From assembly GCA_051294375.1 (NCBI GenBank), contig CM119263.1:20798115-20862114 (forward strand): a stretch of 64,000 nucleotides of DNA, written 5' to 3'. The notes beneath the pieces are model-generated. The model was not told the DNA's origin. It was given only the letters and a program-made list of their open reading frames with translations, and searched no databases. The position numbers and the translations under genes were made by a program. Of this stretch, positions 4,381-48,296 are shown in pieces; position 1 is the stretch's first letter; each line of letters begins with the position of its first letter. Source of the DNA: Paraspadella gotoi. Taxonomy: Eukaryota > Animalia > Chaetognatha.

Positions 4381-4881
4381 CATGTTTGGAATATTGGATT
4401 AGAATAAATCTCGGTTAAAAATTTTTTTTTATTATTTCATTTAATAAAATTAGCAGATCGTTGATAATTACAATAAAATCTTTTTTACAGAATGGACAAT
4501 TGCTTATTTCATCGATGCTTAGTAGCATTTTTATTCATATTATAATTCTAAAAAAAATTTTGTATGCACCCAACACACATTTATTATTATTATCAGTTTA
4601 GTTTGAATTTTTTAATATTTGAATATCATTCAAAATGAATTCACCTGGATGCCGCTTCTCCACTTCCTGGGCCCAATCGTAAACAGCTGGGACCCAGCCA
4701 TCCCCAACACATCAGCTATATTAAAAATATTATTTGTTAAATGCAATTACACAAAAATGACAATGTTATAAGAAAATAAAAATTTAAAAAAACAACCGGG
4801 TGATTTAATACAATTAAAAAATAAGGAATCATGTCTGAAAAAGATTAAAAATAAAACTATTGAATGATAAGGAAATAAAAA

Positions 4882-5622
4882 CCCCCACCCTATTTACCCC
4901 ACCCCAAATTTACCCCCACCCCAATTTTACCCCCACCTCAATTTACCCCAACCCTAATTTACCCCAACCCTAATTTACCCCCACCCAATTTACCCAACCC
5001 TAATTTACCCCACCCTAATTTACACCCTATACCAACCTAATTTACCCCAACCCTAATTTACCCCACCCTAATTTACCCCCTAATTTACCCCAACCCTAAT
5101 TTACCCAACCCTAATTTCCCTCAACCCTAATTTCCCTCAACCATAATTTCCCTCACCCTAATATACCCCTACCCTAATTTACCCAACCCTAATTTACCCC
5201 CAACCTTAATTTACCCCCACCCTAATTTACCCCCACCCTAATTTACCCCAACCCTATTTGCCCTAACCCTAATTTCCCTCAACCCTAATTTACCCTAACC
5301 CTAATTTCCCTCAACCCTAATTTCCCTCAACCCTAATATACCCCACCCTAATTTACCCCCACCTTAATTTATCCCCACCTTAATTTATCCCCACCCTAAT
5401 TTACCCCCACCCTAATTTCCCACAACCCTAATTTACCCCCAACCTTAATTTACCCCCACCCTAATTTACTCCCCAACCTTAATTTACTCCCCAACCTTAA
5501 TTTACTCCCAACCCAATTTACCCCCAACCCTAATTTACCCCAACCCTATTAATTAACCCTAATTACCATACCTAATTACCATTAACCCTAACTTACCATT
5601 AACCCTAACTTACCATTAACCT
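4882..5622. repeat. Degenerate telomere-like minisatellite, ~16-18-bp unit (accctaatttacccc)
   Basis: Dozens of units each contain CCCTAA. The array ends in accctaacttaccatta variants. Confidence 0.9.
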
Positions 5623-18747: not shown

Positions 18748-20518
18748 GGTGGCTGTGGTATTCCTCCCACACGGGGATTACGCTCCAACTGGATTCCGTC
18801 CCTCACGGGATTTTCCTCCCACGCGGATTCCTCCCATGGCGATTCTCCCACACGGGATTCCTCCCACAAAACGGGATTCCTCCCCGCAAGGGAATCCTCC
18901 ACACGGAATTCCTTCCAAAGGAATTCCTCCCACATGGGATTTCCTCCCCATGGAATTCCTCCCATAGAATTCCTCCCACACGGGATTTCCTCCACACGGG
19001 ATTCCTCCCCAAAGAATTCTCCCACGCGGGATTCCTCCCACACGGGATTCCTCCCACGCGGGATTCCTCCCACACGGGATTCCTCCACGCTGGGATCCTC
19101 CCACACGGATTCTCCCACGCGGCATTCCTCCACACGGATTCCTCCACGTGCGCGGGATTCCTCCCACAGGGATTCTCGACACGGATTCCTCGAACACGGG
19201 ATTTCCTCCCACACGGGATTTCTCCCACGCGTGATTCCTCCCCACACGGGATTCCTCCCACTCGGGATTCCACCCCACACGGGATTCCTCCCACACGGAT
19301 TCCTCACACACTGATTTCCTCCACCTGATTTCCTCGCCACACAGGATTCCTCCACACAGGATTCCTCCACAGGGATTCCATCCCACACGGGATTCCTCCC
19401 ACACGCGATTTCATCCCACACGGGATTCCTCCCCTTAATTGTGAATTAACTTTCTTGTTGCATGTTCTTGTTTCAGGAAAAAATTGATTCATTAAAATAA
19501 ATTTTTGTGTGTGGTAGGAAAGTATTTGATAAAGCTGAATATAAATTTTTTAATGTAATCCGTAGTTGTGGAAAGAGTTCAAATTAGAAAACCAAGAAGA
19601 CACATTTATTGAATTTTTTAAAGTTTCTCTCTCTCTATCTCTCTGATTGATTGATTGATTGATTGACCAAATCATGCCATTGACAAAAATATGCCAGTTG
19701 ACCAAATTCTGCAGGTTAACCAAATTATGCCAGTTGACCAAATTATGCCTGTTGACCAAATTATGCCAGTTTACCAATTTTGTCTCTATTGACCAAAGTA
19801 TGCCAGTTACCAAATAATGCAAGTTGATTAAATATGCAAGTTGACCAAGTTAGCTTATTACCACTTAATTATCGTAGGCAGATCGACATTGTTTGCTCAA
19901 CTTGTTTTTTTTATGGACGTGGGAGAAAATCCCGCGTAGGAGGAATCCCGTGTGAGAGGAATCCGCGTGGGAGGAATCCGTGTGGGAGGAATACGCGTGG
20001 GAGGAATCCCGCGTGGAGAATCGCACGTGGAGGAATCCCGCGTGGGAGGAATCCCGCATGGGAGGAATCCTGTGGGAGGAATCCCGTGGGAGGAATCTCC
20101 GAATGGGAGAATCCCGCTGGGAGGAATCCTGTGTGGGAGAAGATCCGCGATGGGGAATCCAGGTGGAGGAATCCCGCATGGGAGGAATCGCTGGAGGAAT
20201 CCGCGTGGGAGGAATCCATGTCGGAGGAATCCCGTGTGGGAGGATCCCGCATGGGAGGAATCCGGTGGGATTGGAGGATCCCGCTGTAGGAATTCCTGGG
20301 GAGAATTCTGTGGGGAGGAAACCCGTGTGGGAGGAATCCCACGTGGGAGGAATTCCTTTGGGAGGAATCCCGTGTGGAGGAATTCCTTTGGGAGGAATCC
20401 CGTGTGGGAGCAATTCCATTGGAGGAATCCCGTGTGGGAGGAAACCCGTGTGGGAGGAAATCCCGCGTGGGAGGAATCCCGCGTGGAGGAATCCTGTGGG
20501 AGGAATCCCAATGGAACC
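18748..20518. mobile_element. Fold-back/MULE-like non-autonomous transposon whose long TIRs are 17-18-bp minisatellite arrays
   Basis: An array of cacacgggattcctcc(c) at ~18760-19432 faces its reverse complement at ~19917-20510. The termini are GGT...ACC. A 9-bp direct repeat ATCCTTCGG flanks it at 18739-18747 and 20519-20527. Confidence 0.75.
19435..19912 (+). mobile_element. Helentron-associated (HINE-like) fragment between the two minisatellite arms
   Basis: It shares the gaccaaattatgccagtt repeats with 28570-28945. Its 3' end ggcagatc(c)gacattgtttgctcaacttgttt matches 39640-39672. Confidence 0.55.
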
Positions 20519-21157: not shown

Positions 21158-22481
21158 TAGAGTGGAGCACTCAAGAACAAAAACAGCTATTTGAATGATT
21201 GAACAATGATATTTAGATGTGAGATAGTATGATTTAACTAGTACAAAAAATATTTGTTCATATTATCTCGGGAACAGAATAGTAAAATATAATATATTGT
21301 AGTAATATCCTTATTAAAAATAGTAAATTTAAAAATATTTTTTTATAAAACTTATAATAAAAGATTCAGATTTCATAAAAAGTTGAATCAAAAATATGTA
21401 CGAAATAACTATCTTTAATATTACGAGGAAATCCAGCTTCTCTACCTTTCTCCCCCATGCTCTTTTGTTCTTTGTTACTGGCATCGAAAATGCCTCCATT
21501 CTCGCGATCGCCACGACATCTTTAGGCTCTTTCCTTTGTTATACCTTAGTACAGAATTCCGAAGGCAGTGTACAGCTGATTCTGATTGGTGCCCGTGATT
21601 TCGATAGATTTCGATTAAGATTCTAATCGAATTCTGGCCACGTGGTATCTTCAGATCTCAAAGTTGTCACTGGGTTTAGTTCTTTTCAGAGCATTAGAAA
21701 CTCTTATTTAGATATCTCGGAATCTTATTTTTTGTGGTGATCGCTGGTTTGGTGGACTTTTCTATGAGAGAAGCAATCTCTATTTGTTTATTTATTGGCT
21801 TCAGAAACAAGTAAGAAAGACTAACTGCTACAGAGCTTATCTACATCACTACTTACTACAGACATTTCGTCAAGTCCTGGGCTTTGCAGTTCGTCGTCCT
21901 TTTCGGCCTTAGCCGACGTCGTTCTGCGCGAGACTTTGTCGGCATCATCTCCAGGGCGTCATGACCGGCGCCATCGTCTCTTCTGCGCCATTTATTCCCG
22001 ATTTCATTTGGTCTTGTATGCGCAGGATAAGCCTAGACAGTTAGAATTCAAAGAAGCCACTTCTCCGAACTTAGTTTCAATATATAAACATGTTATCAAA
22101 ATTCTGTCATCTTCAATGTTTAAATATAAAAAAAAAGGTGAAAATTCCTGACTTTTTTATTCTCTGTAGTAGAAACTTATATATGTTAAAATGTTTAGTC
22201 TTTTTTGTATCTAAACATTAAAATATCATATAACATATTTTATAAAAGTTTCTTTAGTTTTTTTATAGGCGAATCCAAATCAGTTCTTAAAAATAAAAAA
22301 CAAATTATTTTGAAATTTGACGATTTTATAAGGATATACTACATAAAATAATTGAATTTGCTATACTGTGTATTGCTAAAATAATTTTTAAAAGGATTTA
22401 AAATTCATTAATTATATGTCCATAGGCAGCAAAAAAAAGTAATGCTTCCAGATCACTCAATCTTTTCATCACTCCACCCTA
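21158..22481. mobile_element. Non-autonomous hAT transposon, copy 1
   Basis: TIRs are TAGAGTGGAG ... CTCCACCCTA. A perfect 8-bp TSD CTGTGTAC sits at 21150-21157 and 22482-22489. Confidence 0.85.
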
Positions 22482-22646: not shown

Positions 22647-22885
22647 AAAATGGATGAATGCTACATTTAGCGAAAGGTGTTCTCCTTGATAAATGTTACA
22701 TCCAGGAAAAAGTTGTCTACTTTTTGATAAATGCTCAATAAGGAGAATAGTTGTTATCTTTTTAATGTTGCTACAACTGGTGAAAAGTTATCTCCAAATT
22801 GATAAATGCTCAAAAAGGCGTAGTGAAAGTGTCAGAACAAAATTTGAATAGTTGTTCATGAACAATCTTGTACTAACGAACAATG

Positions 22886-23043
22886 AGAGAGTCTTGATTG
22901 AAAGCTTGCAGGGACTTGCTATGTCATTATCTTGTAAGAGTGATGGAGGCCTTAAACCACCAAAGCCTGTCCAAAGTCAGGGGCAAGATGGCTTATTTAT
23001 TAAATGAATGGATAATTTTTATATTGGTTGTACCAATTTCATA
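22886..23043 (+). mobile_element. SINE-like retroposon fragment (family S2); other copies at 23947-24140 (+) and ~42584-42780 (-)
   Basis: The three copies share gagagtcttgattgaaagcttg...ggaggccttaaaccaccaaagcctgtccaaagtcaggg...atattggttgtaccaatttcat. They have a common 3' end and variable 5' ends. Confidence 0.65.
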
Positions 23044-23345
23044 TAATTTTTTTTTGTTTTAATTTCTCAATTTTTGCATATGCCTATATTTATATATACA
23101 TTAGAGTGGAGCACTGGGAAACATAAATTTTATTTGAATGAACAAACAAGGATATTTAGATGTATGATATGATTAAGGCATACAAAAAATATTTTGCTTA
23201 TATTATTTGGGGAACAGTATCATTAATTAAAATATTTTTATAGTAATATCCCTGTGTATAGACTTTCGATTTCGTTGTGTTTCGAATTTAGGGAGGAAAG
23301 CAATATATTTGTTTTGCTTCAACGAATTTTAGGACATTTTTTTCA

Positions 23346-23374
23346 GACATGTTTCGACTCTGAGTCTTCATCAG
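23346..23374 (-). ncRNA. Minimal type I hammerhead ribozyme motif (stem II loop shortened)
   Basis: The minus strand reads CTGATGA-A-GACTC-a-GAGTC-GAAA-CATG-TC. Confidence 0.6.
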
Positions 23375-23424
23375 CATTGTGACAATCAATAATTTTTTTC
23401 TTTTAACATTAAGTTAGAGAGAAG

Positions 23425-23456
<32 letters not shown>

Positions 23457-23740
23457 GAGAGTTTCCAACAAAGAATTGAGAAAGGGATAGTAGTCAGATG
23501 TGAGGAGAGGTGAAGGCAAGGATAGGGAAGAAGAAAGTCAGTTGAAATTTGAAATTGAGGGAATGAGAAAGAAAGAGAGAGAGAGAGGGAGAGAGGGAGA
23601 GTTGAGAAAAGAGCTCAAAATGACCACTATCCCTTTCTCAATTCTTTGTTGGAAACTCTCCCTTTCTCTCTCTCTCTCTCTCTCTTTCTCCTTCTCTCTA
23701 ACTTAATATTAAAAGAGAAAAATTATTGATTGTCACAATG

Positions 23741-23776
23741 CTGATGAAGACTCAAACTGTAGAGTCGAAACATATC
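23741..23776 (+). ncRNA. Minimal type I hammerhead ribozyme motif (loop 3 substituted)
   Basis: The sequence reads CTGATGA-A-GACTC-aaactgta-GAGTC-GAAA-CATA-TC. Confidence 0.6.
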
Positions 23777-24404
23777 CGAAAAAAATGTCCTAAAATTAGT
23801 TGAAGCAAAACAAATATATTGTTTTCCTCCCTAAAGTAATATCCCTATAAAATAATAAATTTTCAAAATATTTTTAAAAAAAAATTTTAGCAAAGATTCT
23901 CATTCTTCATAAAAAGTTAGATCAAATATATAAAATATGTATAGAGAAGCCAGGTTCACTGGGAGTGAATAAATAAGACTGTGAGAGAGTCTTGATTGAA
24001 AGCTTGCAGAAACCTGCTATGTTATTATCTTGTAAGTGTGATGGAGGCCTTAAACCACCAAAGCCTGTCCAAAGTCAGGGACAAGATAGCTTATTTATTA
24101 AATGAATGGATAATTTTTATATTGGTTGTACCAATTTCATGTTATTAAAAATTTCAATGTCTTCAGCGTCAAAAATGGAAAAAAAATATCAAAATATCTT
24201 AAAACATATATTACAAAAGTTTTTTAGTTTTTTCCGGCGAATCCAAAACTGTTTCATTAAATTGAAAAAAATGATTTTGAATTTTTTTGATTTTATAAGG
24301 AATTACTTTATTTTATTTTATATTTTATATTACTTTATTTTATTTTTTTACTATAAAGGAAATTCAATTATTTTAAAAAAAGGCTTAATTATTTTTTATT
24401 ATAT

Positions 24405-24768
24405 CGTCAGCGGATACGGCGATCCAGCCTCCCCCCATTATGATCATCTCGAACACTCTCTCTCTCTCTTTCCCTCTCCCACTCTCTCCCTCCTTCGCTT
24501 ATTCGATCGTGGGCTTGCATCATAGCGAATCACAGGGCAGGGAGTGGGACTAGGGCAAAGGGAATTGTTTCATGGGCCGAGGGAGTAGGAAGGAGGACTT
24601 TGGTTTCAGAATCGAAGCTGCCCTCGGCCCGAATGGTTGTAATATAATCTCTAGCTTAGATATTCACATTGTGCGCTAAACTGTAAATAAATAAATAAAC
24701 TTTTGCTTGTCTCTAATTTTTGTACGTGATTATTTAATACATCAAAGAAACAGTGCATTAAGGCAAAG
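24405..24768 (+). repeat. 5' LTR (364 bp)
   Basis: It runs cgtcagcggatacgg...gtgcattaaggcaaag, with a TATA-like AATATAA at ~24640 and an AATAAA cluster at ~24685-24699. Confidence 0.93.
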
Positions 24769-24798
24769 TGGTGGCAGCGGTGGGATTCGAACCCACGC
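24769..24798 (+). promoter_or_regulatory. Primer-binding site complementary to the 3' 30 nt of tRNA-Leu, including CCA
   Basis: TGGTGGCAGCGGTGGGATTCGAACCCACGC has the reverse complement GCGTGGGTTCGAATCCCACCGCTGCCA-CCA. That is the T-arm and acceptor 3' strand of metazoan tRNA-Leu(AAG/TAG). Confidence 0.9.
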
Positions 24799-25297
24799 AC
24801 ACAAAGCGCAAAGACAACTTCAAGGTAAAAGGGTAAAGAAAAACTAAAACTAAACAAAAAGAGAACAACAAGACAGAAAAGAAAGAAAGTGGAGATAAAT
24901 CCGAAGAAGAAATAAGCCAGAATAGACAGAGAAAGACCCAGTTCTTTCTCAACCCAACCCACCGGGAAAACGCCGGTCGATCGCGCTTCGATCGCCCGGA
25001 GGAGGAAGGGGGCAGACCAGCGCCTGAGAAGAAGCGAACAAACCTAGAAAAGCTCACAACCGCTCAAAATTATTTCCAACTAAACAAGTAAGATTCGAAT
25101 AAAAAGACAAAATAGAAAAAAAAAAGCGAAACGATCTTTTGTTTTCAAAGAGAAAGAGGAAAACACAAGCGAACCCAAGTAAGTGCAAGCGAAAACTAAA
25201 TAGAAAAGAAACAAAAAACCTCATAAGATCAGACAAGGGTTAAAAGAAAAATAAAATTCGATAAGTTTCAAATATCAAATATTAAAACCCAAACAGA

Positions 25298-27181
25298 ATG
25301 CAGACGTTAGTGCTAATCCTCGGGATAGCCACGGTGGCCGCTGGAACCATGCTCGTCGGGGAAAACGGGCATGGAATACTCAAACAAAAGATAGAAGTCT
25401 ACGACTGCAACACCACATCCGACCACACGGCGATCGCATTAGACGAGAGAAAATGCGAACAGGCAAACAAAGTCAAAGAGGAATTACGCACGGCTCACCT
25501 AATATTCCACCCAGATGATCTAGAGCACGATGGGTATGGATGCGATCTGGTCATCGTCGCCACCAGACGCCTTTGCGGAAGGTGGAGCATACAATACCCG
25601 AATATAGATGCAATCGACCACTTCAGCCTGGAAAGACAGGAATGCCTGGACTTACACGCCGGAAAGAGAATCACGCTAAGTAAGATCCCAATTCTCATGA
25701 GCGACAGAGCCGGCGTCCTTCAGCCCATACAGATCGAGGGAAAGGAAGGTACCAACCTGATATCGCACCAAGTGGGAACAACGGACGCGGACGGCAGCTG
25801 CACAGGTGAGTCGCTGAAGTTCCATGGACGGTTGTACACCTCCGAGAACGCCAAGCTGGCATCAAACCTCACCTTGTACAAAAGAAAGGTCAGGGTGGCG
25901 GACAGAGTAAATTCGAAGACGGGATCTTGCGATGTAGCTAAGCAGCAGTGTAGTTATCCAGGAGGGATCATCGTGTGGGATGACGCCCGTTGCCGGGCAG
26001 TGGTCGGCTATACTGGTGGAATGTATCGTTCGCAGGATGGAATCATAAGAGCAGTCTCCGAAGTCGACATTCGAAAGGCCATCAACCGATGCCACGACGC
26101 AAATGGAGCTCCAACACCATGCGGAGATCTGCTGAGGGGAGCAAACCGATTTGGAGGGTGTTGGACGAGTTGCTCGGAAGCTAGGTACCCCGACGCCGCC
26201 CAGGGCCTGGAACGATGCATGGTCATGTGCGGCGGAACCAGCGACGCCGCCTTCACCCTCAGATTGACTGGAAGAAAAACAAGGATCTCCAGCTGCGGGT
26301 TGGTAGTAGACGAAACATCCTCGCCCCATTTCTTTTACGCAGAAGGACGAATCCAGGGCCTAAAGTGGGACACTTCAGTGATGGAGGCGCTCCATGAGAC
26401 GGCGTCAAAATTGGCTCAGGACAATCAAGAGAACATTGATTCTCTCACCAAAGCGGTACGGCATGAGCTCTGCGTGACGCGAGCGCGCGAGGCGAGGACA
26501 GCAGCGATCGAGGCTCACCGTTCGCCAGCAGCCACCACTTTCGTCGATCGCGGCGAAATCGCCGTCCTCCGTGGGGAATTGTTGGTCACCGCGAGGTGCC
26601 GACAAATGCTCGCTCTTCGTCGGGAAACAGAGAAGTGCTTCCAGGATCTGCCCATAACGTTTGGGGGGCGCGAGGCGTATCGCCACGCCATATACCATCA
26701 CGTGATCGATTCATCCTTCGAGACGCCTTGCTCGCCCCCTCCGGTGTATCAGCTAGGAGACAAGTTTGTAGACAATGACGGACATCCGTTCAACAAATAT
26801 CAAACGCTCCGAACCACGCTTCCGGACGCCCAACACCACGTGACCAGCGAGATCTCGATATACGAAGAAGTAGGGAGGTTCATGGACCGTCATGCCAAAT
26901 TCACAGGACAGACCCAGCGATTCAATGAACGCCTAGGCGAGATCACCGCCGGATCGCCGTCATCATTCATCCGGCGGATATTTGGAGATTCGTCGCTGGT
27001 CGAAATATGGAACTGGTTGGTGAACTTGGCTCCTCTCATGGGCATCATCGCCATAGGAGGAGTAGTCGCGTTGTGCGTATGCTGCGGCTGCTGCCAATGC
27101 GCAACTGGCTGCATCAGGCGTCAAGCGGAAGCGGTCGGACGAAATGTCGACGCCTCCACAGGACGGGCCACAGGACGCTAG
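25298..27181 (+). CDS. Viral-type envelope glycoprotein, 627 aa, resembling chuvirus-like class III fusogens
   Basis: The ORF is intact, intronless and GC-richer than its surroundings. It has a signal peptide (MQTLVLILGIATVAAG), Cys-rich ectodomain motifs (EVYDC, C..LCG, DGSCTG, AFTL..CG..ETSSPHFF, HELC, GELLVTARC..RETEKCFQDLPI..TPCS), a C-terminal TM helix and a short Cys-rich tail. Confidence 0.88.
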   Translation: MQTLVLILGIATVAAGTMLVGENGHGILKQKIEVYDCNTTSDHTAIALDERKCEQANKVKEELRTAHLIFHPDDLEHDGYGCDLVIVATRRLCGRWSIQYPNIDAIDHFSLERQECLDLHAGKRITLSKIPILMSDRAGVLQPIQIEGKEGTNLISHQVGTTDADGSCTGESLKFHGRLYTSENAKLASNLTLYKRKVRVADRVNSKTGSCDVAKQQCSYPGGIIVWDDARCRAVVGYTGGMYRSQDGIIRAVSEVDIRKAINRCHDANGAPTPCGDLLRGANRFGGCWTSCSEARYPDAAQGLERCMVMCGGTSDAAFTLRLTGRKTRISSCGLVVDETSSPHFFYAEGRIQGLKWDTSVMEALHETASKLAQDNQENIDSLTKAVRHELCVTRAREARTAAIEAHRSPAATTFVDRGEIAVLRGELLVTARCRQMLALRRETEKCFQDLPITFGGREAYRHAIYHHVIDSSFETPCSPPPVYQLGDKFVDNDGHPFNKYQTLRTTLPDAQHHVTSEISIYEEVGRFMDRHAKFTGQTQRFNERLGEITAGSPSSFIRRIFGDSSLVEIWNWLVNLAPLMGIIAIGGVVALCVCCGCCQCATGCIRRQAEAVGRNVDASTGRATGR

Positions 27182-27219
27182 GAAGACTCGGCGTCAGTCT
27201 AAGACCTGACTCCTCGTCT

Positions 27220-27236
27220 GGGGCGGCGGGGGGGCG
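27220..27236 (+). promoter_or_regulatory. Polypurine-tract-like G-rich plus-strand primer site
   Basis: A G-rich tract (ggggcggcgggggggcg) lies immediately 5' of the 3' LTR. Confidence 0.7.
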
Positions 27237-27596
27237 CGTCAGCGGATACGGGATCCGCCTCCCCCCATTATGATCATCTCGAACACTCTCTCTCCTTCCC
27301 TGTCCCACTCTCTCCCTCCTTCGCTTATTCGATCGTGGGCATTTGCATCATAGCGAATCACAGGGCAGGGAGTGGGACTAGGGCAAAGGGAATTGTTTCA
27401 TGGGCCAAGGGAGTAGGAAGGAGGACTTTGGTTTCAGAAGCGAAGCTGCCCTCGGCCCGAATGGTTGTAATATAATCTCTAGCTTAGATATTCACATTGT
27501 GCGCTAAACTGTAAATAAATAAATAAACTTTTGCTTTTCTCTAATTTTCGTACGTGATTATTTAATACATCAAAGAAACAGTGCATTACGGCAAAG
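27237..27596 (+). repeat. 3' LTR (360 bp)
   Basis: It is colinear with 24405-24768, with roughly 6-7 substitutions and a few small indels counted by eye. Confidence 0.93.
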
Positions 27597-28024
27597 ATAT
27601 ATACAAAAGGGGCAAAAAACATTGTTCCATCGCTCAATCTTTTCATCACTCCATCCTAATAAACATAGTACTTACCATAAAAAATGTAAAAAATTTTAAA
27701 ATAGTTTTTTTTTAGTTTTGAATTCTTCAATATAAAAGTTGATAAAAGAAAATATAAGTAGTGGAGGACGGAATTTTTAGTGAGAAAGAATTCTTTCATT
27801 AAGTTAAATTAATTAAATTATAGGTTAACTATAACAGTTTTTTAGGATTTTGACCCACTTACTAAAATAATTTTCTAAAAAGAGTTATATTTCTTTTTAT
27901 CAACTTTTCGTGATGAATTTGAATCTGCTTTCAAAAATAAGAAAATCTATTTTAAATTTTAACATTTTCTGTGGTAAGTACTATGCAATAAATATGGGCG
28001 TATGCAAAAATTGAGAAATTAACA

Positions 28025-28945
28025 TTTTTAGTCGGATCTGCTTATCAGCAGATCCCGACTCTATAATTCACTTTGTCGGTCCGTCGGTCCGCCCCCTCAA
28101 TATTGTCGGGCACATACTTATATCATGTCAGAACATCGAATTATGATTAATTATGCAAAAAAAAAACGATGTCCGTCCGTCCGTCCGTCCATCCGTCCGT
28201 CCGTCCGTCCATCCGTCCGTCCGTCATCCGTCGCGTCGTCGTCCGTCCGTCCCACCTTGGGTAGGGAAGTGTGTGGTTGAGATGGATATGAAGTTTTGAG
28301 GGAATCGTGCGAGTGGAAATTGGTTTTAAATGGAAAACAAAAAATATATTATCACTATTTGAACGCCATATGCTCATGAGTGGATAGGGCAATTGACTTG
28401 AAATTTTGTATGATGGTAGGAAAGTGTGTGATTGAGCTGGATATAAAGTTTCGATGGAATCGTGCGAGTGGAAATGAGTTAAAATGGAAAAAACAAAAGT
28501 CATATTTACTTGAAGTATTTTTACTTAAATTTACTCAATAATTATTATGTTTATTAAAAATTGGATAGATAAATCAGAATTGAATTTTGTGTGTGGGTAG
28601 CAAAGTATGTGATAAAGCTGGATATAAATTTTTTGATGGAATCGTAGAGTGGAAAAGAGTTCAAATTAGAAAACCAAAAGACACATTTATTTGAATTTTT
28701 TAAAGTTTTTCTCTCTCTATCTCTCTCTGATTGATTGATTGATTGATTGATTGACCAAATTATGCCAATTGACAAAAATATGCCAGTTGACCAAATTCTT
28801 AAAGTTGACCAAATTATGCCAGTTGTCCAAATTCTGCAAGTTGATCAGTTCTGCAAGTTGACCAAATTATGCCTGTTGACCAAATTATGCCAGTTGACCA
28901 AATTAGGCCAGTTGATAAAATTATGCCAGTTGAACCAAATTATCC
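28025..28945 (+). mobile_element. Helentron-associated (HINE/DINE-1-like) element
   Basis: A T-run precedes the hairpin gtcggatctgct...agcagatcccgac, then a (GTCC)n microsatellite and 18-bp repeats. The head is nearly identical to that at 39052. Confidence 0.6.
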
Positions 28946-29934
28946 ATCTCTAACGTCAACGTCTTAGTCACGTGACACTGACGTGTCTCAGCTCCATCGT
29001 CACGCTGTGGCGCAACTCCTGTAGCTTGCCACATATTTGATGGCCGATTGGACGTCAAGTTTGTCCATTAGTATACATTACATATTGTATATATGTTGTG
29101 ACATGAAATTTTTTCAGATGATAAGGGGTCTTCGTTTATATCATTTATCGATTTCCCTTTTAACAAAAAAAAGTTGAAATAGAAAAAGTCGACAATGAGA
29201 GAAGACAGAGATGGATGAAGAGCGACAGCAAGAGAGAGAGAGAGAGCTTTAATTTCCCGCAAGGCACTCGACGTGGTTGTCAACCTTCGTTTTTCCTTTG
29301 AAGAAAAATCCTTTTTTAGTCAAAATAGAAAAAAATGAAAGATTTTTTTTTTCAATGGAGGAGAGACTCTAGTTGAAGGAAGGAAAAAAGGTAAAGGAAA
29401 GGAAGGAAGGTTATAAACAGAAATAAAAGGATGAGGAGTCGATCAAAAAAGGAAAATGAAAGTGAAAGCGCCCGTAGAGACTGCCGTGTATTTCCGTTTG
29501 ATCACGTGACATTCAACCTCCGCTGAATCGGGATTTCGTCTTTTATTCTTTATACGATTTCTTTACAATCCGACTCTTTTAGACAATGAAATCTGAACAT
29601 AATTTACGATCATCTCTGATGATCTCATTGACTAGTATGAATCTTTATTCATTTAAAAAAACGTTAGGCTATCTTCCTCTTTTGACATAGTTAGGACTAA
29701 GCTCTGACGAACAAAGCCCGAGGTTTTTTAATATATTCTTATACCGGCCAAGGTAGAATGATGGCAATATTGTTTATATTAAGTTTCAAAAAAATCGACT
29801 ATAAATATAGAAAATATTAACCAAAATCTTCGGAAAATTCACCCCTTCTTTGGAAGATTTTCGCCATAGAAGATTTTTCCCGAATCTGACTCCCGGTTGA
29901 AAACTCTTAGAATTCCGATCGTTAGCTCCTCCTT

Positions 29935-32728: not shown

Positions 32729-33737
32729 TTTTTTCTCTTTTTCTTTTTCTCTCTTTTTTTTCTCTTTCTTTTTCTCTCTCTATCTCTTTCTCTCTCTCTA
32801 TCTTACAAGACTTGTTTTATATAACTGAAAAAATGTACATTTTTTTCAAATTATTGTTAACTCGTTTATTCCATATTTTATCTAAAAATTATAATATTTG
32901 TATTTTTGAACTTAATTATTTTATTTCAATTAAAAGATATAGAAACAAGTTTGATCAAACAATGTATGACGTGGCCACAATAATTTAGTGGTAAAAAGCT
33001 AATCAGTCATCTGTCTTTTTTTTTTCCTTTTTTTTTTTTGATGGACATACTGATGGACTGATAGAGAGAGACATAATTTTTTAAAAAAATATTCATAATT
33101 TGATGTTCAAAAAAGAATTAAATAAATCATAAATAAACAAATAATGGGCGGTAATTGACAGACCTACTTTGTGAATTATGGAGTCCCAAAAAAAACCAAA
33201 AAAACTATTTATCAAGATTTTTAATTTGTGATCAACATTAAATGAGTTCCACATCATGAAATAAATTTTTTTCATTGTAATTAATAATTATCAGATTGTA
33301 GATTGCCTCAGATGAACTCACGTTGTTGAGGAAAGGCTGATGGTTTGAGAGAGAGAGTGAGCAAAACTTTATATCTAGCTCAATCATACACTTTTCTACT
33401 CACACACAAGATTTCATTCCAATCCATATATCTAATCACGAATAATTTGAGTTTAATTCTACCCACACACAAAATTTTATCTTAATTCATCTATGAAATT
33501 TTAAATAGTAGAATAAAGAGTAAGATGGTTTTAATTTTTTAATTCACTTATAAAAATAATTAATTAATTAATTAATTATTAATATCAGTCTTTAAGTCCG
33601 TCCCACATTAGCAAAAGTGTGCAAGTGAAAGTGAAAGTCATATTTACTTGAATGTTATTAAAAATTTTTTCTCACTCTTTCTCTCTTTCTATTTCTCACA
33701 GATGAAATTAATAATTAGCTAATTGTTAAGTTTATTG

Positions 33738-34097
33738 TTAACCAAATTATGCAAGTTGACCAAATTATCCAAGTTGTCCAAATTATGCAAGTTGACCAAA
33801 TTATGTAAGTTGACCAAATTATGCAAGTTGACTAAATTATGCAAGTTGACCAAATTATAACAGTTGACCAAATTATAAAAGTTTACCAAATTATAAAAGT
33901 TTACCATATTATGAAAGTTTACTAAATTATAAAGGTTAACCAAATTATGTAAGTTGACTAAATTATTCAAAAAATGACCAAATTATGCCAGTTGACCAAA
34001 TTGTTATAGTTGACCAAATTATGAAAGTTTACCAAATTCTAAAAGTTGACCAAATTATATCAGTTGACCAAATTATGTCAATTGACCAAATTATGCA
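33738..34097. repeat. 18-bp minisatellite (gaccaaattatgcaagtt)
   Basis: About 20 tandem units. The same family occurs at 19665-19850 and 28752-28940. Confidence 0.9.
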
Positions 34098-34314
34098 TAT
34101 TGGTGTGGGCGCAGCTATTGGTTCATTGATTGATTAATGGAAGTGAAAAATATTATTTTTAATTGTATATTTTATTTTATTAAAAGATGAAAAAAGAAAA
34201 GAGATAGAGAAAGAGAGAGAGAGAGGGAGAGAGAGAGAGAGAAGAGAGGGAGAGAGAAATAGGAGGGAGAGCCATTCCAGGGGGCAGGCAAATTCATGCC
34301 CTTGGGGGCCACCC

Positions 34315-34669
34315 CACTGAGAAAGCTTGTATAGAGAGACCTCCAGGTTAAACTCCCGCTCTTCTCCGGACCCACCAATCGCCTACACTGAGAAAGCTTG
34401 TATAGAGAGACCTCCAGGTTAAACTCCCGCTCTTCTCCGGACCCACCAATCGCCTACACTGAGAAAGCTTGTATAGAGAGACCTCCAGGTTAAACTCCCG
34501 CTCTTCTCCGGACCCACCAATCGCCTACACTGAGAAAGCTTGTATAGAGAGACCTCCAGGTTAAACTCCCGCTCTTCTCCGGACCCACCAATCGCCTACA
34601 CTGAGAAAGCTTGTATAGAGAGACCTCCAGGTTAAACTCCCGCTCTTCTCGGGACCCACCAATCGCCTA
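34315..34669. repeat. Five near-identical 71-bp tandem units
   Basis: Units start at 34315, 34386, 34457, 34528 and 34599. There is one substitution, in the last unit. Confidence 0.95.
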
Positions 34670-35329: not shown

Positions 35330-35570
35330 TAACATATATAATTTTTATATTGGTTGTACCAATTTCATATATTGGTTCTACCAATTTCATACATCTCCCC
35401 CCCCATAGGGAGAAGTCTGTTGTGTCTCTTCAGTGAATTGTTGTTGTTGGTGGAAAGTTCGTCACCAAGTTGAGGCATGTCGCCTGATGGCGGAAAGTGC
35501 ATCGCCAGGTTGAAGCATGTCGCCTGAAAGTGTTGTTGTTGCTGTTGTGTTTGGAAGTCGGACTCACCAT

Positions 35571-39672: not shown

Positions 39673-41130
39673 ATTTCCTTCCTTCTCCTCCTTTTTTGCG
39701 TCCTCTTAATTCCTCGTCCTTCTACCAAAATTTGCATAATCCGATTCAAATTGATGTTAATGACTCGAGGTTAAGGAAAACGAGGAAGGGGGGGAGATAG
39801 GGACTAAGATTTTAGCGGGCATTGCGCAGTTTAAGACATCCATCCCTTAGATGTGACCTGGTGGCTCATAGAGTGACCCATTTGGTACCGGGATTGGTCA
39901 CCAAGATGGTACCAAACCTATGGGACGATTGAGGACGGCCGGAAACCGCCGAGGTTATGTTTGTTTGCTGGCAAAGAACTTTCAAACTTTCAAAGATCTT
40001 TAGCCAACTTTGGGACTCAACCAGAAAATGTGTAATGATACAAAAGATCGAAGATTTCATTCCTGCCCTCGACATTTCGTATCGGAATATGTAAACCTCA
40101 TTCTAATCTAATCCCTTTCGAAACTCGTTCGAGAAAGTAAACGAATATCAACGTCAAAGCAATTAAGTTAAATGTTTATTTAATTGGTAATGAAAAAATT
40201 ATAAAAAACACACACGATTCTGTTTTTAAACCAAATACACGCAGCGGGGATCGAAAATAAAAAAAAATTAGATCTCTCGATCGGAAATCGAGATGGTCGG
40301 TATTTCTAAAATGAGAACGACTACTTGTAGAAAACACGTCTGTCAGTGCGTTACGACATACGAAATATAAGATATGGAGAGAAAATTGGAAATGGGGAGG
40401 AGAGAGGGGGGCGGAGGTTTAGCGGCAAATGCCCTTCAACAAATTTATATAAAATTGATCTAAAATCTGAAAGGAACAGTTTTTCAAGTTAAGTCAATTT
40501 TTTTTATTTTCATGCGGTTGAATATTTTGGGTATTTGAAAATTTTGTAAAAATTCAAAGTAAAGTCAGTTGTAAATTACTATTGGCTAAGAAGTAAATAC
40601 AATTAACGTTATGCCATATCTTCGATTGATCTGTTTATATCGATCAAACTATTGATTATACATTAGATACGTACTTACGAATGAAGTTTAAGCTACAAAA
40701 ATATTATTATTGTCCATTAAGTTTGTCCATCCGACAAGTATGAAAAGTTTATGTGAATGAGATTTAAAGTATTAAAACTTTTTTTTTTAAATACTCGTTT
40801 TCAAGATTAATTAGGTTCATTCATTAATGGAAAAAAGCTAAACTTGACGCCGCATCGTCGTTCAATCTCATTTTCTATCAACGCGCGTTTCATCACCATC
40901 CCTTTAAGGCAAAAGCGGTTTTCACAGAGTTCATAGACTTGAGAGAAGATTTTTCCTGAGCAAATCAAATTTATTTTTTCTTGTTTTTTTCTTGGAATAA
41001 AAAAAGTTCGACGATCCCTAAACGAGGAACGACGACCGCGCGGTGTCGCAGCCGTAGGGCCATCGCGGCAACCGCAGTTCCGCCGCGGCAGGGCAGTCAC
41101 GACGCCGCCGCTGCAGAAAGGGTAGGAGCT

Positions 41131-41817
41131 TCACCCGTTGGGCGTGACGAAGCACCACTCCCCGTTGTCGAGGCTGTAAAAGTCGAGGGCGGGAAAGCGG
41201 GCGAGCCAATCCGGTTTGGCGCGAAACCGACTTCCGGTCAAATCGATCATCTTCATGTTGACGAAGATACGAGACGAAGATTCGGGGAGAAAATCAATCA
41301 CGTGACACTCCGCAAAGTCAAACTTTTCAACCTTGGAGGAAAAGAATGTGAGAGTGGGAGGGAAGAGAAGGGAGGGTAGGGTAGGGGAGAGGGAGGGAGG
41401 GAGAGAGAAGGAAGAGGGAGAGATAGAGTCGGAGGGGGGTTTAAGGAATGAAAAGGGATAATGATAATGATAGTGAAGAAAAAATGAGAAAAAAACGCGA
41501 AAAAAGGGAAGCGGGGATCCAATCCTCACTTTTCCCGCCTCCTTCTCCCCAACTTCGCTCATGACCCAAACGATGAATTTCCCCTTGCAGTTGGTCCACT
41601 TGCTGCTCTTGACCAACTCTTGCAGGTTGAGCTTGCCAGCCTCTTTCCGCAGGCTCTCTTCAAGGTTGTGTTTGCTGATGACAAAGTGCCAGTGTTTGGC
41701 CTTCAATTTGAGCCACTTTAGCCCTGAGGGTGGAGAAAAAAGATGTATGTCATTTGAAGCTATTAATTAATAGTATTAAATTTTATTTTAAAATTATATA
41801 CATATCTCCCCCCTCTT

Positions 41818-41861
<44 letters not shown>

Positions 41862-44800
41862 ACTCGGAAGGAGTTCGATCCAATGCGGAATATTCTTCAC
41901 GCCTGATCCTTCGAGATTCACCATCTCCACATTTGCGAAGAGTTTGAGTTTTTCCACGGGTTCGATCACTTCGATTTTGCTGTAGAAAGATGGAGATGTG
42001 ATAGAAAGAAATTGATATGGACCATCAGATAGGGATGGAGATGGACTTCCCTCTGCGTTGGCAAAGCAAGACCGTCCTAGGGTAACCGCGCCAGTGACTG
42101 GAGGCGTCACTGAGGGTCGGAAGCCCCCAAAGCCAACAGTGAGATGCCCCATCCCAATGGGCATCACAGGCAACTCAGCTGTTGCCATACCTACCATTGA
42201 TATCCCCACAACATTTCTCGCCTCACCTTTCATTCAATCGAATCTCCTTGAGGTGAGCGACGTCGTCTGCTTTGACTGAATCCTCGATGATGAGACTTTG
42301 GATGCTGTTGCCTCGAGTCCACGAGTTGCGCCTCTCCGCGCTCAAGTCCAGCGTCTGGTTGAATGGGACATTAAGGGAGGGGTAAAAGCGATTGAAAGAA
42401 TTTGTTCACTTAAAAATTTCTTGCGTAAAAGACAATGCTTTTTTTTACCCTGTTATCTATAAATTCTTTTTAATCGTTCGAGTGGCAACCTCAACATAAC
42501 AACGGCTGAAAGTTCAGAACTTGCACTTTCAACTTCCATTTATAGAACTCGCCAAAGCGACAAATGAAAATTTAAAACTCCTTATGAAATTGGTACAACC
42601 AATATAAAAATTTCCCATTCATTTAAATAATTAAGCTATCTTGCCCCCGACTTTGGATAGGCTTTGGTGGTTTAAGGCATCCATCACTCTTACAGATAAT
42701 GACATAGCAGGTTCCTTCAAGCTTTCAATCAAGACTCTCTCACAATCTTGTTTATTCACTCCCAGACTACCTGGCTTCCCTATCAATGAAGTGGTATAAT
42801 GTTTCAAAGAATGTTTCAATTGTATGAAAAGACCACTCCCTTAAGTATATTATATCAAATTATATTATTATCATTCAATTCTATTCCTTGGTGACTTATC
42901 CTTGCGCATTTCTTACATATTGTACCCCTTATTGACTCAACCTCGTCCTTTCCCTGCGTATTTCTTGAAAATTGTTTTCATTGGCGATTCACCGTGGGAA
43001 TTTCATTTCGCATTTTTATCAAGCCATGACCGGCGAAGCCGGTTCAAGGCTTGATATTCATTCGGGTGAGCTTCTTTGTGACGTAGTCGTCGTCGTCGTC
43101 CTCGTCGTCCGTCACGCTGTTTTTCTATATAAAACTACTACGCTTTTATAGGTTTGGCTGTGACTTACCGTTTTTTAAAAATAAAAATTATTATGAATTA
43201 TGATAAAGTTTTACAAAAGTGTGCATTCATAGTAAGTTAAAAATTTAGATAATGGCTTCTCATCTTGAAATAGCTTTGATATTTTCTTATTACATTTGGA
43301 TTTAAGTATTTTTGTTTGAATTTCCACTTCATTATGATTTACTGCAATATGCAAATGAGATTATAGTACTCATTATCATATTCCAAATTAGTATATAGAA
43401 ATGCTTTAATCTAATTTACATATTGCAGTATATAATATTGAAGATGAAATTCAAAAAATTTTTTTTAAATCTCTAATAAAAATGGGAACTCAAAATAACT
43501 TTTTAATGAGAAGCTATATCTTAATTTTAATACAAATAAAAATAAAATCTTTTACAAGCTGCGATTGGAAAAAATTGGAAAAATTTCAAATTGTAAACCA
43601 TTGTAACATTTTTTGCCTTTCTTTTTATTTTTTTTATTTCTTTTATTTCAGAAAAAAACGAGTTTCAGTTTTTGCACTGACTGTACAGCGGCCTTCAAAC
43701 AGCTGTCCAGCTTTGTCTCTCTTTCTCTCTCTCCTCTCTCTCTTTCTCTTCTGTCTCTTTCTCTCTTTACGATCTCTTGCGTGATCGTTTCTTTTTTGAA
43801 AAATTATGATTATGTTTTTCTCTTAAAAACTTTTATTTCGGGCTTTTTTCTCAATACAAAATCCCAAATTTACATCCGAGATTTTCGTGGATACATTTTT
43901 AAAAAGTGAAGAATAACTTATATTGACATGCATTGTCACATATAAATCAGCTAATGTGACTTATTATATATGCAGCACTTTCGCCGAACAATATGCATTA
44001 CATTTAAAAAAATAAATTTGTAATTTATTATTATTGTAACTTTGAACCGGTTGCCCACTATTGGCAAATTATATCTTAAATAGTAGAGTTGATAAGAGAG
44101 ATATAGTCAAATTAAACATTACTTTTTTTGTTATTCTGAATATTTATACTATTATTAATTTATAAATATTTTTAGTGTATATATTAATCATTTTTATCTT
44201 TTTTTAAATAATAATTATTTGAGTTGTGAATAACTATTTATAAATTATTAAATATGCAAATATAAAATTTGACCTCGGTCTGTTTCTTCCTAAAAAGAAC
44301 AATCAAAAATTTCATTCAAGATAATTTTTTAAAATGAGGAAATAAAATTTTTTTGATAAGTAAAAAAATATTTGGAAGTCAAAAATATTATAGTCGTTAA
44401 CTGAGTATTTTTCAACTATATATTTGTTAATAGGGATTATAATTTTTGGATCAATTATTATTGAATAAGAGTGAAAGAGAGTTTAGTTTTTTTTCTTCTG
44501 AATAGGGGTAGCCCCTCTCAATGGGGTGAATCAAAAATTTTGTATGGGAACATGCTCAAACGAAATTTTATGCTTTTTTAAGTTTACTTTTCAATGTACA
44601 AAAAATTTTTACATGTCTCTATAGTCTCTATATGTCTCTTATACCAATATTTATTTTGTAATATTTTTTTATAGAAAGGAAAAGAGTTCGTCCCTACTCA
44701 TATTCGTCGGAAAATGAGTTCAGCTCTGCAGCGGCGGTCCAGCGGCGGTCCCAGCGGCTTGTCCAGCTTCTCTCTCTCTCTTTCCTCTCCTCTCTCTCTC

Positions 44801-44984
44801 TCTCTCTCTTTTTTTCCTTCTAAAAACTTTTATTATCGCCATTTATTCCGCGCTTTTTTCTCAATACAAAATCCCAATTTACATCCGAGATTTTCGTGGA
44901 TTTTTTCCTTAAAAATTCTGAATATTCTTTATATAAACGAGAGAGACCTAATAATGCGTTTCGTTGGCGCGGAAAACTGTCCAG

Positions 44985-45020
<36 letters not shown>

Positions 45021-46349
45021 ACTCATACACCGCATTTGTTTGTTTTATTTACGATGAATGATTCATCGCGTCAATGAATGACTATCATCGCATCAATGAA
45101 TGACTATCATTTCATGGCTTGATCCTTATGCTTTTAAGATTTTTTGTATATTGTCTTCATTGGTGACTCACCGTCGGCGTTTCCTTGCGCATTTCATGCA
45201 GATTGTCTTTGTTAAGGACGAATCTCCAGTTTCCATCGTCGAGTCGCATCATCGCCAGACCCGTCAATTCCTTCGACCAGGAAGGCACGTCCGCTAACCC
45301 CGTGCCGGTCAACTCCAACACCTGGCCCAAGGATTCAATAAAATACAAAAAAATACAAAGTTAAAATACCAATTAAAGCTAAGAACTATTGAAAATATTC
45401 TAATTCAAATTATTTAACTATATATATTTGCTTCAGGTATACAAAGTAGTGCCATAAAAAAAAACAAACTACGACCTTATTTTTTTCTGTACCAGACCTT
45501 ACCTTGACGTTTTTGAAGGCCCTGAGTTTCTCGGGCGGTTGAACCGTCTTGATCTTGGAGGACATCATCCCCATCTCTTTAACTTTGGAGGCCTCGACTT
45601 CGTCGACGTCGGAGTCGATGATCAAAGTGTTGATGCTGTGACCTTCCGTCCATCTTTAGAAAGGAGAATGATTGTTATGATTCATTAAACGATTAACTGA
45701 TTGGTCAATTGATTGATTGATTAATTTACTAATGACATGATGATTCATTAACTAATTTAATTCATTAATATTGACTGATCGGTATACAAGCAGTATATGT
45801 ATATAATTTGCCTTTCCCATGTTTCTTTTTTTCCCCGATCATCCATTCGGCAAACTTGATTAACTTCCAACCAATGTCGTTTTCCTATTTTCTCGTAACC
45901 CGAGGGTTTCATGAGTTTGCGACCAGCTCCAATTTTGTCAGAACAACAACGAAAGCAACAAAAACTACAACGACAACGCAGAAAAGACAAAATCGAACGA
46001 AGACAACAACAACAACAACAACTGGCCTACAATCCATCCTCCCTTCCAGCGTGAGGCGCGGGCTCCGGTTGTTTTCGATCATGTCCTCAATTTGATCCTT
46101 GGTCACCACGAAGTCCCACACGTCGGTGGAGCGGCGGACCAGCCCGCCCGAGAGCGGTTTGCCTACCCGAACCGTCCGACCGGGGTTGAAAGTGACCCAG
46201 TTGAGTCCGCGAAACTCGGACGCCCAGTCAGGCAGATCGGACAAGCCCGTCCACGTCAGGTTGAGGCTCTTTACGTTGGCGAAGAGACGGAGGAGGTCGG
46301 GCGGGAGGACGGAGATCACGCGGGAGAATTGGAGGTTAATCTCGTGAAC
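41131..46349 (-). CDS. 3' block (7 exons) of a host gene encoding ~110-aa tandem LRR-like repeats
   Basis: Exons 46349-46027, 45653-45503, 45321-45172, 42354-42227, 41979-41864, 41723-41530 and 41331-41131 join in compatible phases. Four repeats follow the pattern I..(V/L).P...L..F.NV..L.L.G.G....P.W...(L/F).GL......W.FV(I/L).K..L.E. Confidence 0.8.
43015..43921 (+). mobile_element. Second copy of the Helentron/DINE-like repeat at 16530-17578 (intronic)
   Basis: It is colinear with 16530-17578 at high identity. Confidence 0.65.
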
Positions 46350-46462
46350 CTGAAAAAAAGATAAATAAATAAATTGTATTAATCCTTTCTTTTTTTGTTT
46401 GTTGAGATTAATTAAAAACGAAAATTTTCGTGGAACAACAATAAAGTTTTTTATTAACTTTG

Positions 46463-48262: not shown

Positions 48263-48296
<34 letters not shown>

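Follow-up and report, generated by a model that had tools for sequence, protein, structure and literature searches.

Envelope (env) genes of the gB type have been described on Ty3/gypsy elements across animals in the accessible part of the errantivirus survey by Chary and Hayashi (eLife 2026, PMC13524379), whose screen demanded pol and a spacing of more than 5 kb between the LTRs. In the BEL/Pao element Anakin, a chuvirus-type class III glycoprotein likewise lies inside an LTR element, and the available text reports BEL-Pao domains in all 63 two-LTR copies, besides 37 solo glycoproteins without an LTR (Dezordi et al. 2020, PMC7642597). The locus analysed here, in a window of 64,000 nt (64 kb) from Paraspadella gotoi, is a 3.2-kb LTR retroelement at positions 24405-27596 with a single intact ORF, an env, and without replication genes. 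Like the HSV/gB-type Ty3/gypsy errantiviruses it combines LTRs with a class III env that has a signal peptide and one anchor, but those viruses, as defined in the part of PMC13524379 at hand, possess gag and pol, and with neither gene the element can be at most a derivative of a Ty3/gypsy errantivirus. A 3.2-kb env-only element could not have been listed by a screen demanding pol and such LTR spacing; screens for enveloped retrotransposons in general seek env beside pol, a design that necessarily misses env-only elements. A first-pass annotation of the window had named Anakin as precedent, which holds for a chuvirus-type glycoprotein within an LTR element, but Anakin is not the closest precedent, since gB-type env had already been described on Ty3/gypsy in the accessible part of that survey. 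Compared with Anakin, the element has two LTRs but no BEL-Pao domains, a 4-bp target duplication and an env of a distant lineage. With confidence about evenly divided, the element is best read as an env-only branch of a Ty3/gypsy-type 'errantivirus' family that depends on a helper, being copied by the Gag and Pol of another element.

Anatomy and insertion of the element

The two LTRs were delimited by their alignment. The 5′ LTR (364 bp, 24405-24768, on the + strand like all element features below except the target duplication) starts with CGTCAG, ends with GCAAAG and contains overlapping AATAAA signals at 24686-24699. The 3′ LTR (360 bp, 27237-27596) likewise ends with GCAAAG, and a contig from the public run X5 starts exactly at 27237. 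Their alignment of 366 columns comprises 352 matches, 6 mismatches and 8 gap columns, a divergence of at most 1.7% by substitutions, part of which is possibly assembly or haplotype noise; its use as a clock was rejected. In run X5 a single 229-nt contig represents the LTR at about twice the interior depth, and the LTRs there may be nearly identical. The primer-binding site, of the tRNA-Leu type and about 29-30 nt long (24769-24798), abuts the 5′ LTR with zero gap, 29 nt pairing with a tRNA-like acceptor strand, T-arm and CCA; no tRNA genes were found in the 64-kb window. A G-rich plus-strand primer tract (27220-27236) directly precedes the 3′ LTR and, with 3 C among its 17 nt, is not purely purine. 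Flank comparison identifies ATAT on both sides (24401-24404 and 27597-27600, without strand) as a 4-bp target duplication. Paralogous hAT sites without the insertion, found in public contigs, back this length: they show 5 letters against 9 in the window. The paired LTRs, primer-binding site, plus-strand tract and 4-bp duplication that the first-pass annotation had listed as a full cis set were thus all located, and its description of the interior, a leader of about 500 nt (measured at 529 nt) followed by one intact 627-aa ORF, was accurate.

The termini of the element are CG..AG and not TG..CA, a feature absent from that annotation, and TTACG is present 6 nt inside the 3′ LTR only. Judged by sequence, the CG..AG ends match no element family tested.

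The insertion splits a non-coding hAT-type MITE (23102-27658, without strand) that has TIRs and an 8-bp duplication with 7 of 8 positions matching. An uninterrupted sister element (21158-22481, likewise without strand) has matching TIRs and a perfect 8/8 duplication. It had been presented as the empty site, and it is indeed colinear with the interrupted copy, but at 76-79% identity over the longer blocks it demonstrates colinearity and not the exact empty site. The accompanying claim of insertion as one unit is upheld by the LTRs and their flanking duplication, the hAT comparison and the empty paralogous sites: the element was inserted as a single unit. The env-only reading is supported by the complete cis anatomy and by a 4-bp duplication that lies cleanly in a dated target.

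Within the element there is no gag or pol ORF, and no RT, zinc-knuckle or protease motifs were found in the 64-kb window. In a Pfam search for signs of the host group, nine candidate frames gave no match above the cut-off. A single HHCC-like pattern, interrupted by a stop, occurs outside the element at ~53.9 kb. Since replication genes are absent, the element is likely mobilised by borrowed helper enzymes. A 4-bp target duplication is typical for Ty3/gypsy errantiviruses. The 12-nt primer site of the element is identical in 11 of the 1512 Ty3/gypsy errantiviruses in the accessible data, 9 of them assigned to tRNA-Leu and 3 of the gB type, and this sharing favours a Gypsy-type over a BEL/Pao helper, as had been proposed before.

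The envelope protein

The ORF (25298-27181) encodes an intact type I membrane glycoprotein of 627 aa, assigned to the class III (gB/chuvirus G) fusogen family; the longest stop-free frame in 200 shuffles had 261 aa. Hydropathy peaks only at aa 1-23 and 572-607, consistent with a signal peptide, an ectodomain and a single membrane anchor near the C-terminus (about aa 574-595, 27017-27082); beyond the anchor come a juxtamembrane stretch rich in Cys and a short tail. The translation contains the motifs YDC, DGSCTG and GE..C..R.T..C..LP, in agreement with the string previously noted (YDC, DGxCxG, GE..C..R.T..C..LP). The PF24664 profile scores 77.4 bits (E 7.9e-22, best stretch aa 314-498) against a curated cut-off of 27 bits. 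A Foldseek comparison with viral fusogens, which the first-pass annotation had suggested as a check, places herpes gB and a chu-related G on top and thereby reveals class III fold similarity: all 42 of the listed PDB matches are herpes gB (best E 2.2e-10), and the top match in the viral library is the chu-related G (best E 2.9e-27). Superposition on herpes gB gave Z 6.6 with rmsd 6.1 over 150 for domain IV, and Z 5.9 with rmsd 4.8 over 137 for the domain I region; over the whole chain the TM-scores are low, at 0.2-0.3, and VIA Z does not exceed 6.8. The top Atlas match reached 0.97, with an Atlas recognition of 1532, under its mark of 2300, and a PDB sequence search with the env protein gave nothing below E 0.08. 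The env is predicted from its modelled structure to be a class III fusogen (gB/Monjiviricetes G).

A cysteine-rich helical insert (about aa 255-315, 26060-26242) was recognised by anchor-to-anchor comparison and in the predicted structure, where it is modelled as helices at pLDDT 54-73. Between the anchors of the comparison lie 108 residues with 8 Cys in the env and 99 with 8 in its nearest homologue cluster, P0036, as against 52-64 residues and 2 Cys in the other 14 rows; the insert, with six cysteines, is common only to the env and this cluster. In the phylogenetic tree, which does not include Anakin proteins and whose deep branches are open and long, the env occupies its own long branch with P0036 (support 99/96). 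With named chuvirus-type proteins it shares about 17-19% identity. As far as sequence can place it, the env is a distant lineage of its own and not a close chuvirus capture; the earlier designation 'chuvirus-like' stands for the fold family but not for close kinship. A homologue protein search with the env (lengths 344-1098) and with the alignment (57-1255) returned no match, and no related locus was found in viral contigs or, with a DNA pattern and the homologue P0007 as queries, in metagenome contigs.

Leader and relatives in public contigs

The leader (24769-25297, 529 nt) is A-rich (47% A) and contains neither an ATG nor an ATG-initiated ORF; its ATG depletion was dropped as evidence (p=0.11 under a dinucleotide model). 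No gag or pol remnant was found in it. Contig depth and pieces delineate a block at 24908-25020, conserved in many relatives, with a CGATCG-loop-CGATCG hairpin; we infer it to be a candidate packaging or dimerisation signal, although the stability of the hairpin is not above that of shuffles (z -0.36, -1.0 and -1.7). By contig depth, the following segment (25020-25082) is bridged by no listed relative and is one possible site of a lost gag-pol. The env-proximal leader (25082-25297) is ~80-86% identical in diverged relatives by contig alignments. It holds two donor-like GTAAG motifs (an estimated ~0.6 expected by chance), and a weak CAG precedes the ATG. A possible short intron in the 5′ UTR (donor-like 25179, CAG 25294-25296) is a weak lead: its acceptor has no pyrimidine tract, and the joints listed include no exact splice product of it.

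Contigs of the same organism from four runs (X1, X2, X5 and X9, the last perhaps of RNA) and three studies contain near-identical pieces of the element in every run. Exact pieces of 389-522 nt have about the depth of single hAT junctions, and a near-identical second env, as from a recent full-length parent, is not evident in the contigs. Among relatives, 14 of the 17 listed ORF differences are synonymous, where 24-30% would be expected (p of about 1e-5 or below), and third codon positions account for 28 of 39 listed env difference sites (p 1e-6). The listed env differences are the best-supported subset, 12 of the 17 falling within one 82-nt stretch; within it, they demonstrate codon-level constraint on env among the relatives. 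Some relatives are broken, with frame-changing indels near 26572-26635 or a joint from 25020 to 26441.

Several contigs bear on the layout of these relatives. In run X9 a relative ~7% diverged (record 32) links the env end to the G-rich tract and the LTR start. In X2 one relative of the 80-86% identity class is continuous over 25167-25286 (record 13) and another reaches 25285 (record 12), with ~87 letters between by subtraction of record lengths. Some relatives therefore likewise have a short leader 5′ of env, and the presence of the env-proximal leader in diverged relatives indicates that gag-pol does not directly precede env there. Joints into the env start have 20-21 letters on their short side, below the 31-letter standard. 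Relative to the exact copy, the depths of the leader block and the env start are 28 and 28 in X2, 16 and 17 in X5, and 17 and 21 in X9; run X1 disagrees (18 and 3), and leader bins in X2 reach about 80-fold, contig depth not being equivalent to copy number. At 25040-25064 the depth falls to approximately that of the exact copy in X1 and X2 and to 0 in X5 and X9, and no relative among the listed contig matches bridges 25020-25082. The relatives could consequently be full-length with gag-pol at this position, in which case the env constraint would be silent on env-only copies. The contig matches, none of which spans a second whole copy, revealed neither a gag-pol helper nor another env-only insertion flanked by a duplication of its own. 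A 1869-nt contig in X9 (record 26) contains the leader block and about 1750 nt that do not align to 24740-25480.

Competing explanations and comparison with known elements

Under the helper-dependent reading, a gag-pol-env ancestor would have lost gag-pol and retained the LTRs, primer site, leader block and plus-strand tract. Env would be translated from the first ATG of the LTR-driven RNA, and the same RNA would be packaged by means of the conserved leader block; with tRNA-Leu as primer, a helper that duplicates 4 bp would then reverse-transcribe and integrate it. The env would be retained because particles from the same cell carry both Env and its RNA, the gene thus aiding its own cell-to-cell spread, and the element might lend its helper an envelope.

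A real though somewhat doubtful possibility is that the element is a one-off or dead-end deletion derivative of a gag-pol-env errantivirus, or its reverse-transcribed spliced env RNA, with full-length relatives and an env intact merely through youth. The wide distribution of gB-type env on Ty3/gypsy (accessible part of PMC13524379) and the production of errantivirus env from spliced RNA (available text of PMC12992720) are in line with such an origin, as are the small sequence divergence of the LTRs, the internal deletion form with the 25020-26441 joint and the 1869-nt X9 contig. Moreover, a junction at 25020-25082 would be expected to give the observed depth profile over 24908-25390 (deep, single, deeper, deep). 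However, a near-identical parent env is not evident, the diverged relatives show the env-proximal leader and not a pol end before env, and the leader is free of gag or pol remnants. Everything that speaks for the helper-dependent reading applies equally to a true two-part retrovirus, in which env-only and env-less gag-pol segments share LTR, primer site and leader block and depend on each other for cell-to-cell spread. Env-less sharers would predict a leader block far deeper than env, as in X1 and the deepest X2 bins, the 1869-nt contig is a candidate partner, and engineered retroviral vectors split into gag-pol and env exist (available text of PMC10940750), but no gag or pol sequence at all was seen, and the matching depths of leader and env in X5 and X9 leave little room for many env-less copies; we give this explanation a small probability. 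The broader proposition of a natural invertebrate two-part retrovirus, in which an env-only segment maintained by selection in diverged copies and an env-less gag-pol segment bearing unusual CG..AG ends are co-packaged and co-infect, is unlikely. Least probable is a co-opted insertion whose env was kept by the host as a fusion or virus-blocking gene, mobility being now irrelevant. The near-identical pieces in all four runs and the absence of an exact empty allele among the joints shown would suit it, and the accessible text of PMC7642597 proposes mosquito solo chuvirus-type glycoproteins as domesticated; those solo genes lack LTRs, though, whereas the element here retains every mobility signal in intact form, its LTRs share at least 98% identity by substitutions, and the env constraint is seen across diverged paralogues rather than for this locus.

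A lone deletion would do no more than mark an errantivirus lineage, so far undescribed, that has odd ends and a distinct env. Stable env-only families would make infectivity a shared good carried on its own replicon; 'env-less' retrotransposons might then spread from cell to cell after all, and env could pass between lineages with no need for recombination. The element is a small natural test case for the persistence of an env gene.

No description of a natural env-only LTR family was found in the largely open-access literature searched, which covered part of Table S5 of PMC10084718 and part of the tables of PMC13524379. In the accessible rows of that Table S5, two Jingchuvirales glycoprotein loci are entered with paired LTRs but without a gag or pol domain, spanning 5.6 kb in Bemisia tabaci and 12 kb in Aphis craccivora; they carry an 'incomplete' label, the available text does not treat them as env-only elements, and they are possible unremarked precedents. 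Among elements with unusual termini, the 5′ CGTCA is a listed variant of Troyka, whose LTRs of 100-400 bp fit the element and which has non-autonomous forms, but in the accessible part of that description (Kojima 2025, PMC12440569) Troyka ends in CG, duplicates 3 bp with one reported 4-bp exception and never carries an envelope, whereas the element ends in AAAG, duplicates 4 bp and has an env; membership was rejected on the 3′ end and the 4-bp duplication. With cis signals intact and replication genes gone, the element has the layout of a member of a non-autonomous LTR family. It resembles the plant TR-GAG, LARD and TRIM elements, which are stable LTR elements that keep their cis signals, have no gene or one, and are mobilised in trans, but the gene retained here is env, a category missing from that classification in the available part of PMC6022998.

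Structure and insertion of the element

The first-pass annotation placed an LTR retroelement at 24405-27596, and this position is confirmed by paired LTRs with ATAT on either side. Of the 366 columns in the alignment of the 5′ and 3′ LTRs (24405-24768 and 27237-27596, plus strand), 352 match, 6 are mismatched and 8 contain gaps; both repeats start with CGTCAG and finish with GCAAAG. The CG..AG termini (24405-24406, 27595-27596) differ from the usual TG..CA and were matched by none of the families tested. A Troyka-like TTACG lies 6 bases inside the 3′ LTR end (27586-27596), where the 5′ LTR has TTAAG. In the primer site directly 3′ of the 5′ LTR (24769-24798), 29 nt align on the minus strand to the acceptor strand, T-arm and CCA of a tRNA-like structure; Rfam assigns this match, at E 3e-5 and under the gathering score, to the tRNA-like portion of tmRNA. 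The site spans about 29-30 nt of the tRNA 3′ end, the entire T-arm included, and so exceeds the 8-18 nt given for primer sites in the available text of PMC13524379. The interior consists of a 529-nt leader (24769-25297; 47% A, without ATG), a single ORF of 627 codons (25298-27181), for which 200 shufflings gave a longest stop-free run of 261 residues, and a 17-nt G-rich tract (27220-27236) immediately 5′ of the 3′ LTR. Overall this is a genuine LTR element, intact and with env as its only gene, whose termini are unusual and whose predicted class III env is distinct.

A non-coding hAT-type copy (23102-27658) is interrupted by the insertion; it carries terminal inverted repeats, and its 8-bp duplication matches at 7 of 8 positions. 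The sister copy at 21158-22481, previously taken as the empty site, does retain an intact duplication (8/8), but is only 76-79% identical across its longer blocks, and the 4-bp length is better supported by empty hAT copies in public contigs. These connect both flanks with 5 letters between two anchors versus 9 in the window, which fits the proposed ATAT target duplication. The clean duplication and the presence of both LTRs indicate that integrase inserted complete LTR-to-LTR DNA; to this extent the proposed insertion as one unit stands, while an already short interior at that time is only what we infer.

A short inverted-repeat element (27664-27985) begins directly 3′ of the interrupted copy. 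Nested elements of inverted-repeat (foldback or MITE-like) type, with many AG/CT runs and related to one another, are found within that copy (23287-23835) and at 46534-48375. A 165-200-bp repeat with 90-95% identity is present in both orientations (22884-23048, 23941-24146, 42584-42783, 35338-35371). Minisatellite arrays comprise a 16-bp unit with CCCTAA (4860-5515), the 15-16-bp GGATTCCTCCCAC in two opposed arrays (18759-19450 and 19909-20453), the 18-bp TTGACCAAATTATGCAAG (19644-19832, 28733-28956, 33702-34120, 50675-52274) and a 71-bp tandem (34244-34669). The minus strand at 41100-46350 can be read as a spliced host gene of several exons and leucine-rich-repeat-like character, where four tested frames were without a Pfam match, and an assembly gap of 100 N occupies 54231-54330.

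Fold and lineage of the glycoprotein

The env protein has a hydrophobic N-terminal peptide, a single C-terminal anchor and 27 cysteines. Its score for Pfam family PF24664 (Monjiviricetes_fusion), 77 bits, exceeds the cut-off of 27, and the nearest Atlas clusters bear this family or rhabdovirus G families (0.97), with an Atlas recognition score of 1532, short of the level taken as strong evidence. For an AlphaFold2 model built from 38 sequences (mean pLDDT 76, pTM 0.54), the top Foldseek matches were herpesvirus gB in the PDB (E 2.2e-10) and chu-related glycoproteins among viral models (E 2.9e-27). Whole-chain TM-scores are low (0.2-0.3; VIA Z up to 6.8) and the matches to individual gB domains compact, so that the domains agree but are arranged differently in the model.

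A search of 1.84 billion protein representatives gave 35 homologues at E <= 0.001, nine of them at E <= 1e-10. Among the 20 looked up for source and name, the eight closest are unnamed or 'hypothetical' and come from ENA or JGI/IMG contigs (longest per cluster 0.7-5.6 kb); those that carry a name (Wenzhou crab virus 2, Blattella germanica chuvirus 1, Rice Mononega-like virus and an Aethina tumida locus) match weakly. A tree was built from 16 rows at least 450 aa long, P0001 and P0037 being omitted as near copies of the homologue P0036. In it the env protein pairs with P0036 on a long branch (support 99/96), the deep branches being open. An insert of about 45 residues with six extra cysteines is common to the env protein and the P0036 cluster and missing from the other 14 long rows. 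Profile, fold, tree pairing and shared insert together make the env protein a predicted class III fusogen of distinct lineage. The earlier description as a chuvirus-like fusogen therefore holds for the class III fold, but the weak matches to named chuviruses and the protein's own long branch speak against close chuvirus kinship, and on these comparisons it is not a close capture from a chuvirus.

Relatives and the likely mode of propagation

Nine public runs of one organism, from three studies, contain the stretch or part of it, and contigs of four (X1, possibly the source of the assembly, X2, X5 and X9) were aligned. Exact or near-exact interior pieces are present in all four, the exact ones at approximately single hAT junction depth in X1 and X2, and numerous contigs match at 80-95%. 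Of the ORF differences among the best-supported rows listed, 14 of 17 are synonymous versus 24-30% expected, 12 of the 17 falling in one short stretch, and third codon positions account for 28 of the 39 difference places in this subset over both contig comparisons. Env is accordingly under coding constraint somewhere in the element's family. Certain relatives are disrupted, either near 26572-26635 by indels that change the frame or by an internal deletion with the joint 25020->26441.

On the 3′ side the relatives match the env-only layout, since a 7%-diverged X9 contig runs from the env end through the G-rich tract into the LTR. A lone deletion, or a copy of spliced RNA, from a full element is a rather unlikely origin: relatives at about 80-86% cover 25082-25286, one continuously across 25167-25286, and others join up to 25285 with a short side of only 20-21 letters, so that env is preceded there by leader-like sequence rather than a pol end. 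Still, 25020-25082 is bridged by none of the listed relatives from the four runs, and the gag-pol of a full-length parent could sit there. The leader block at 24908-25020, which contains a palindromic hairpin, is common to many copies; its depth, in multiples of the single-copy value and not equal to copy number by the alignment tool's own warning, matches that of the env start in X2 (28/28), X5 (16/17) and X9 (17/21) but not in X1 (18/3), with the deepest X2 leader bins at about 80-fold. Leader length varies at 24828-24908, one deeper form (X5, X9) being longer by roughly 370-410 nt. A 1869-nt X9 contig joins the leader block to about 1750 further letters outside the aligned stretch; it could represent a helper or else an env of greater divergence. 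At 24764-24769, in X1, X5 and X9, three contigs each agree with the primer site and the five LTR bases preceding it but not with the sequence further 5′. They may belong to other LTR families sharing this end and primer, and are thus candidate helpers.

We give about even chances to a helper-dependent env-only element, whose RNA would be packaged, reverse-transcribed and integrated by a helper; its established basis is the cis signals, insertion as one unit, fold family and constraint in the family. The LTR would drive an RNA with env as the first ORF past the primer site, helper Gag would package it via the conserved leader block, tRNA-Leu would prime reverse transcription and the helper integrase would make the 4-bp duplication. 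Selection can retain an env gene carried by such a passenger RNA provided that the particles containing this RNA are coated with the env product. The two-part retrovirus-like system suggested earlier, in a broader sense that takes in part of this helper-dependent reading, is improbable; an obligate two-part system is less probable again, and co-option of env the least probable of all. A Gypsy-like helper, also suggested earlier, is favoured: the helper is likely of Ty3/gypsy type because 11 of the 1512 errantiviruses of PMC13524379 have an identical 12-nt primer site, nine assigned to tRNA-Leu and three with gB-type env in the data available.

Comparison with known systems

Defective retroviruses carrying env are found in vertebrates. 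A natural env-only LTR family is not described in the literature searched, most subscription journals being outside its coverage. The accessible text of PMC13524379 reports gB-type env on Ty3/gypsy elements across animals in the orders gag-pol-env, gag-env-pol and env-gag-pol, from a screen in which pol was required and the LTRs had to be separated by more than 5 kb. Plant classifications, as far as PMC6022998 is available, include LTR elements that retain just gag or lack genes altogether, and none that is env-only. Troyka has the 5′ end in common with the element, but membership was rejected since 3′ end, duplication and env all mismatch its description in the accessible part of PMC12440569. 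In the Anakin study (PMC7642597, available in part), two-LTR copies have BEL-Pao domains and solo glycoproteins lack LTRs, in contrast to the two LTRs around env alone seen here. Two rows of Table S5 of PMC10084718, in the portion available, show a glycoprotein locus flanked by an LTR pair, with neither gag nor pol domains listed, and could be precedents that went unnoticed. Engineered split gag-pol/env vectors, as presented in the accessible text of PMC10940750, are a working analogue of a two-part system.
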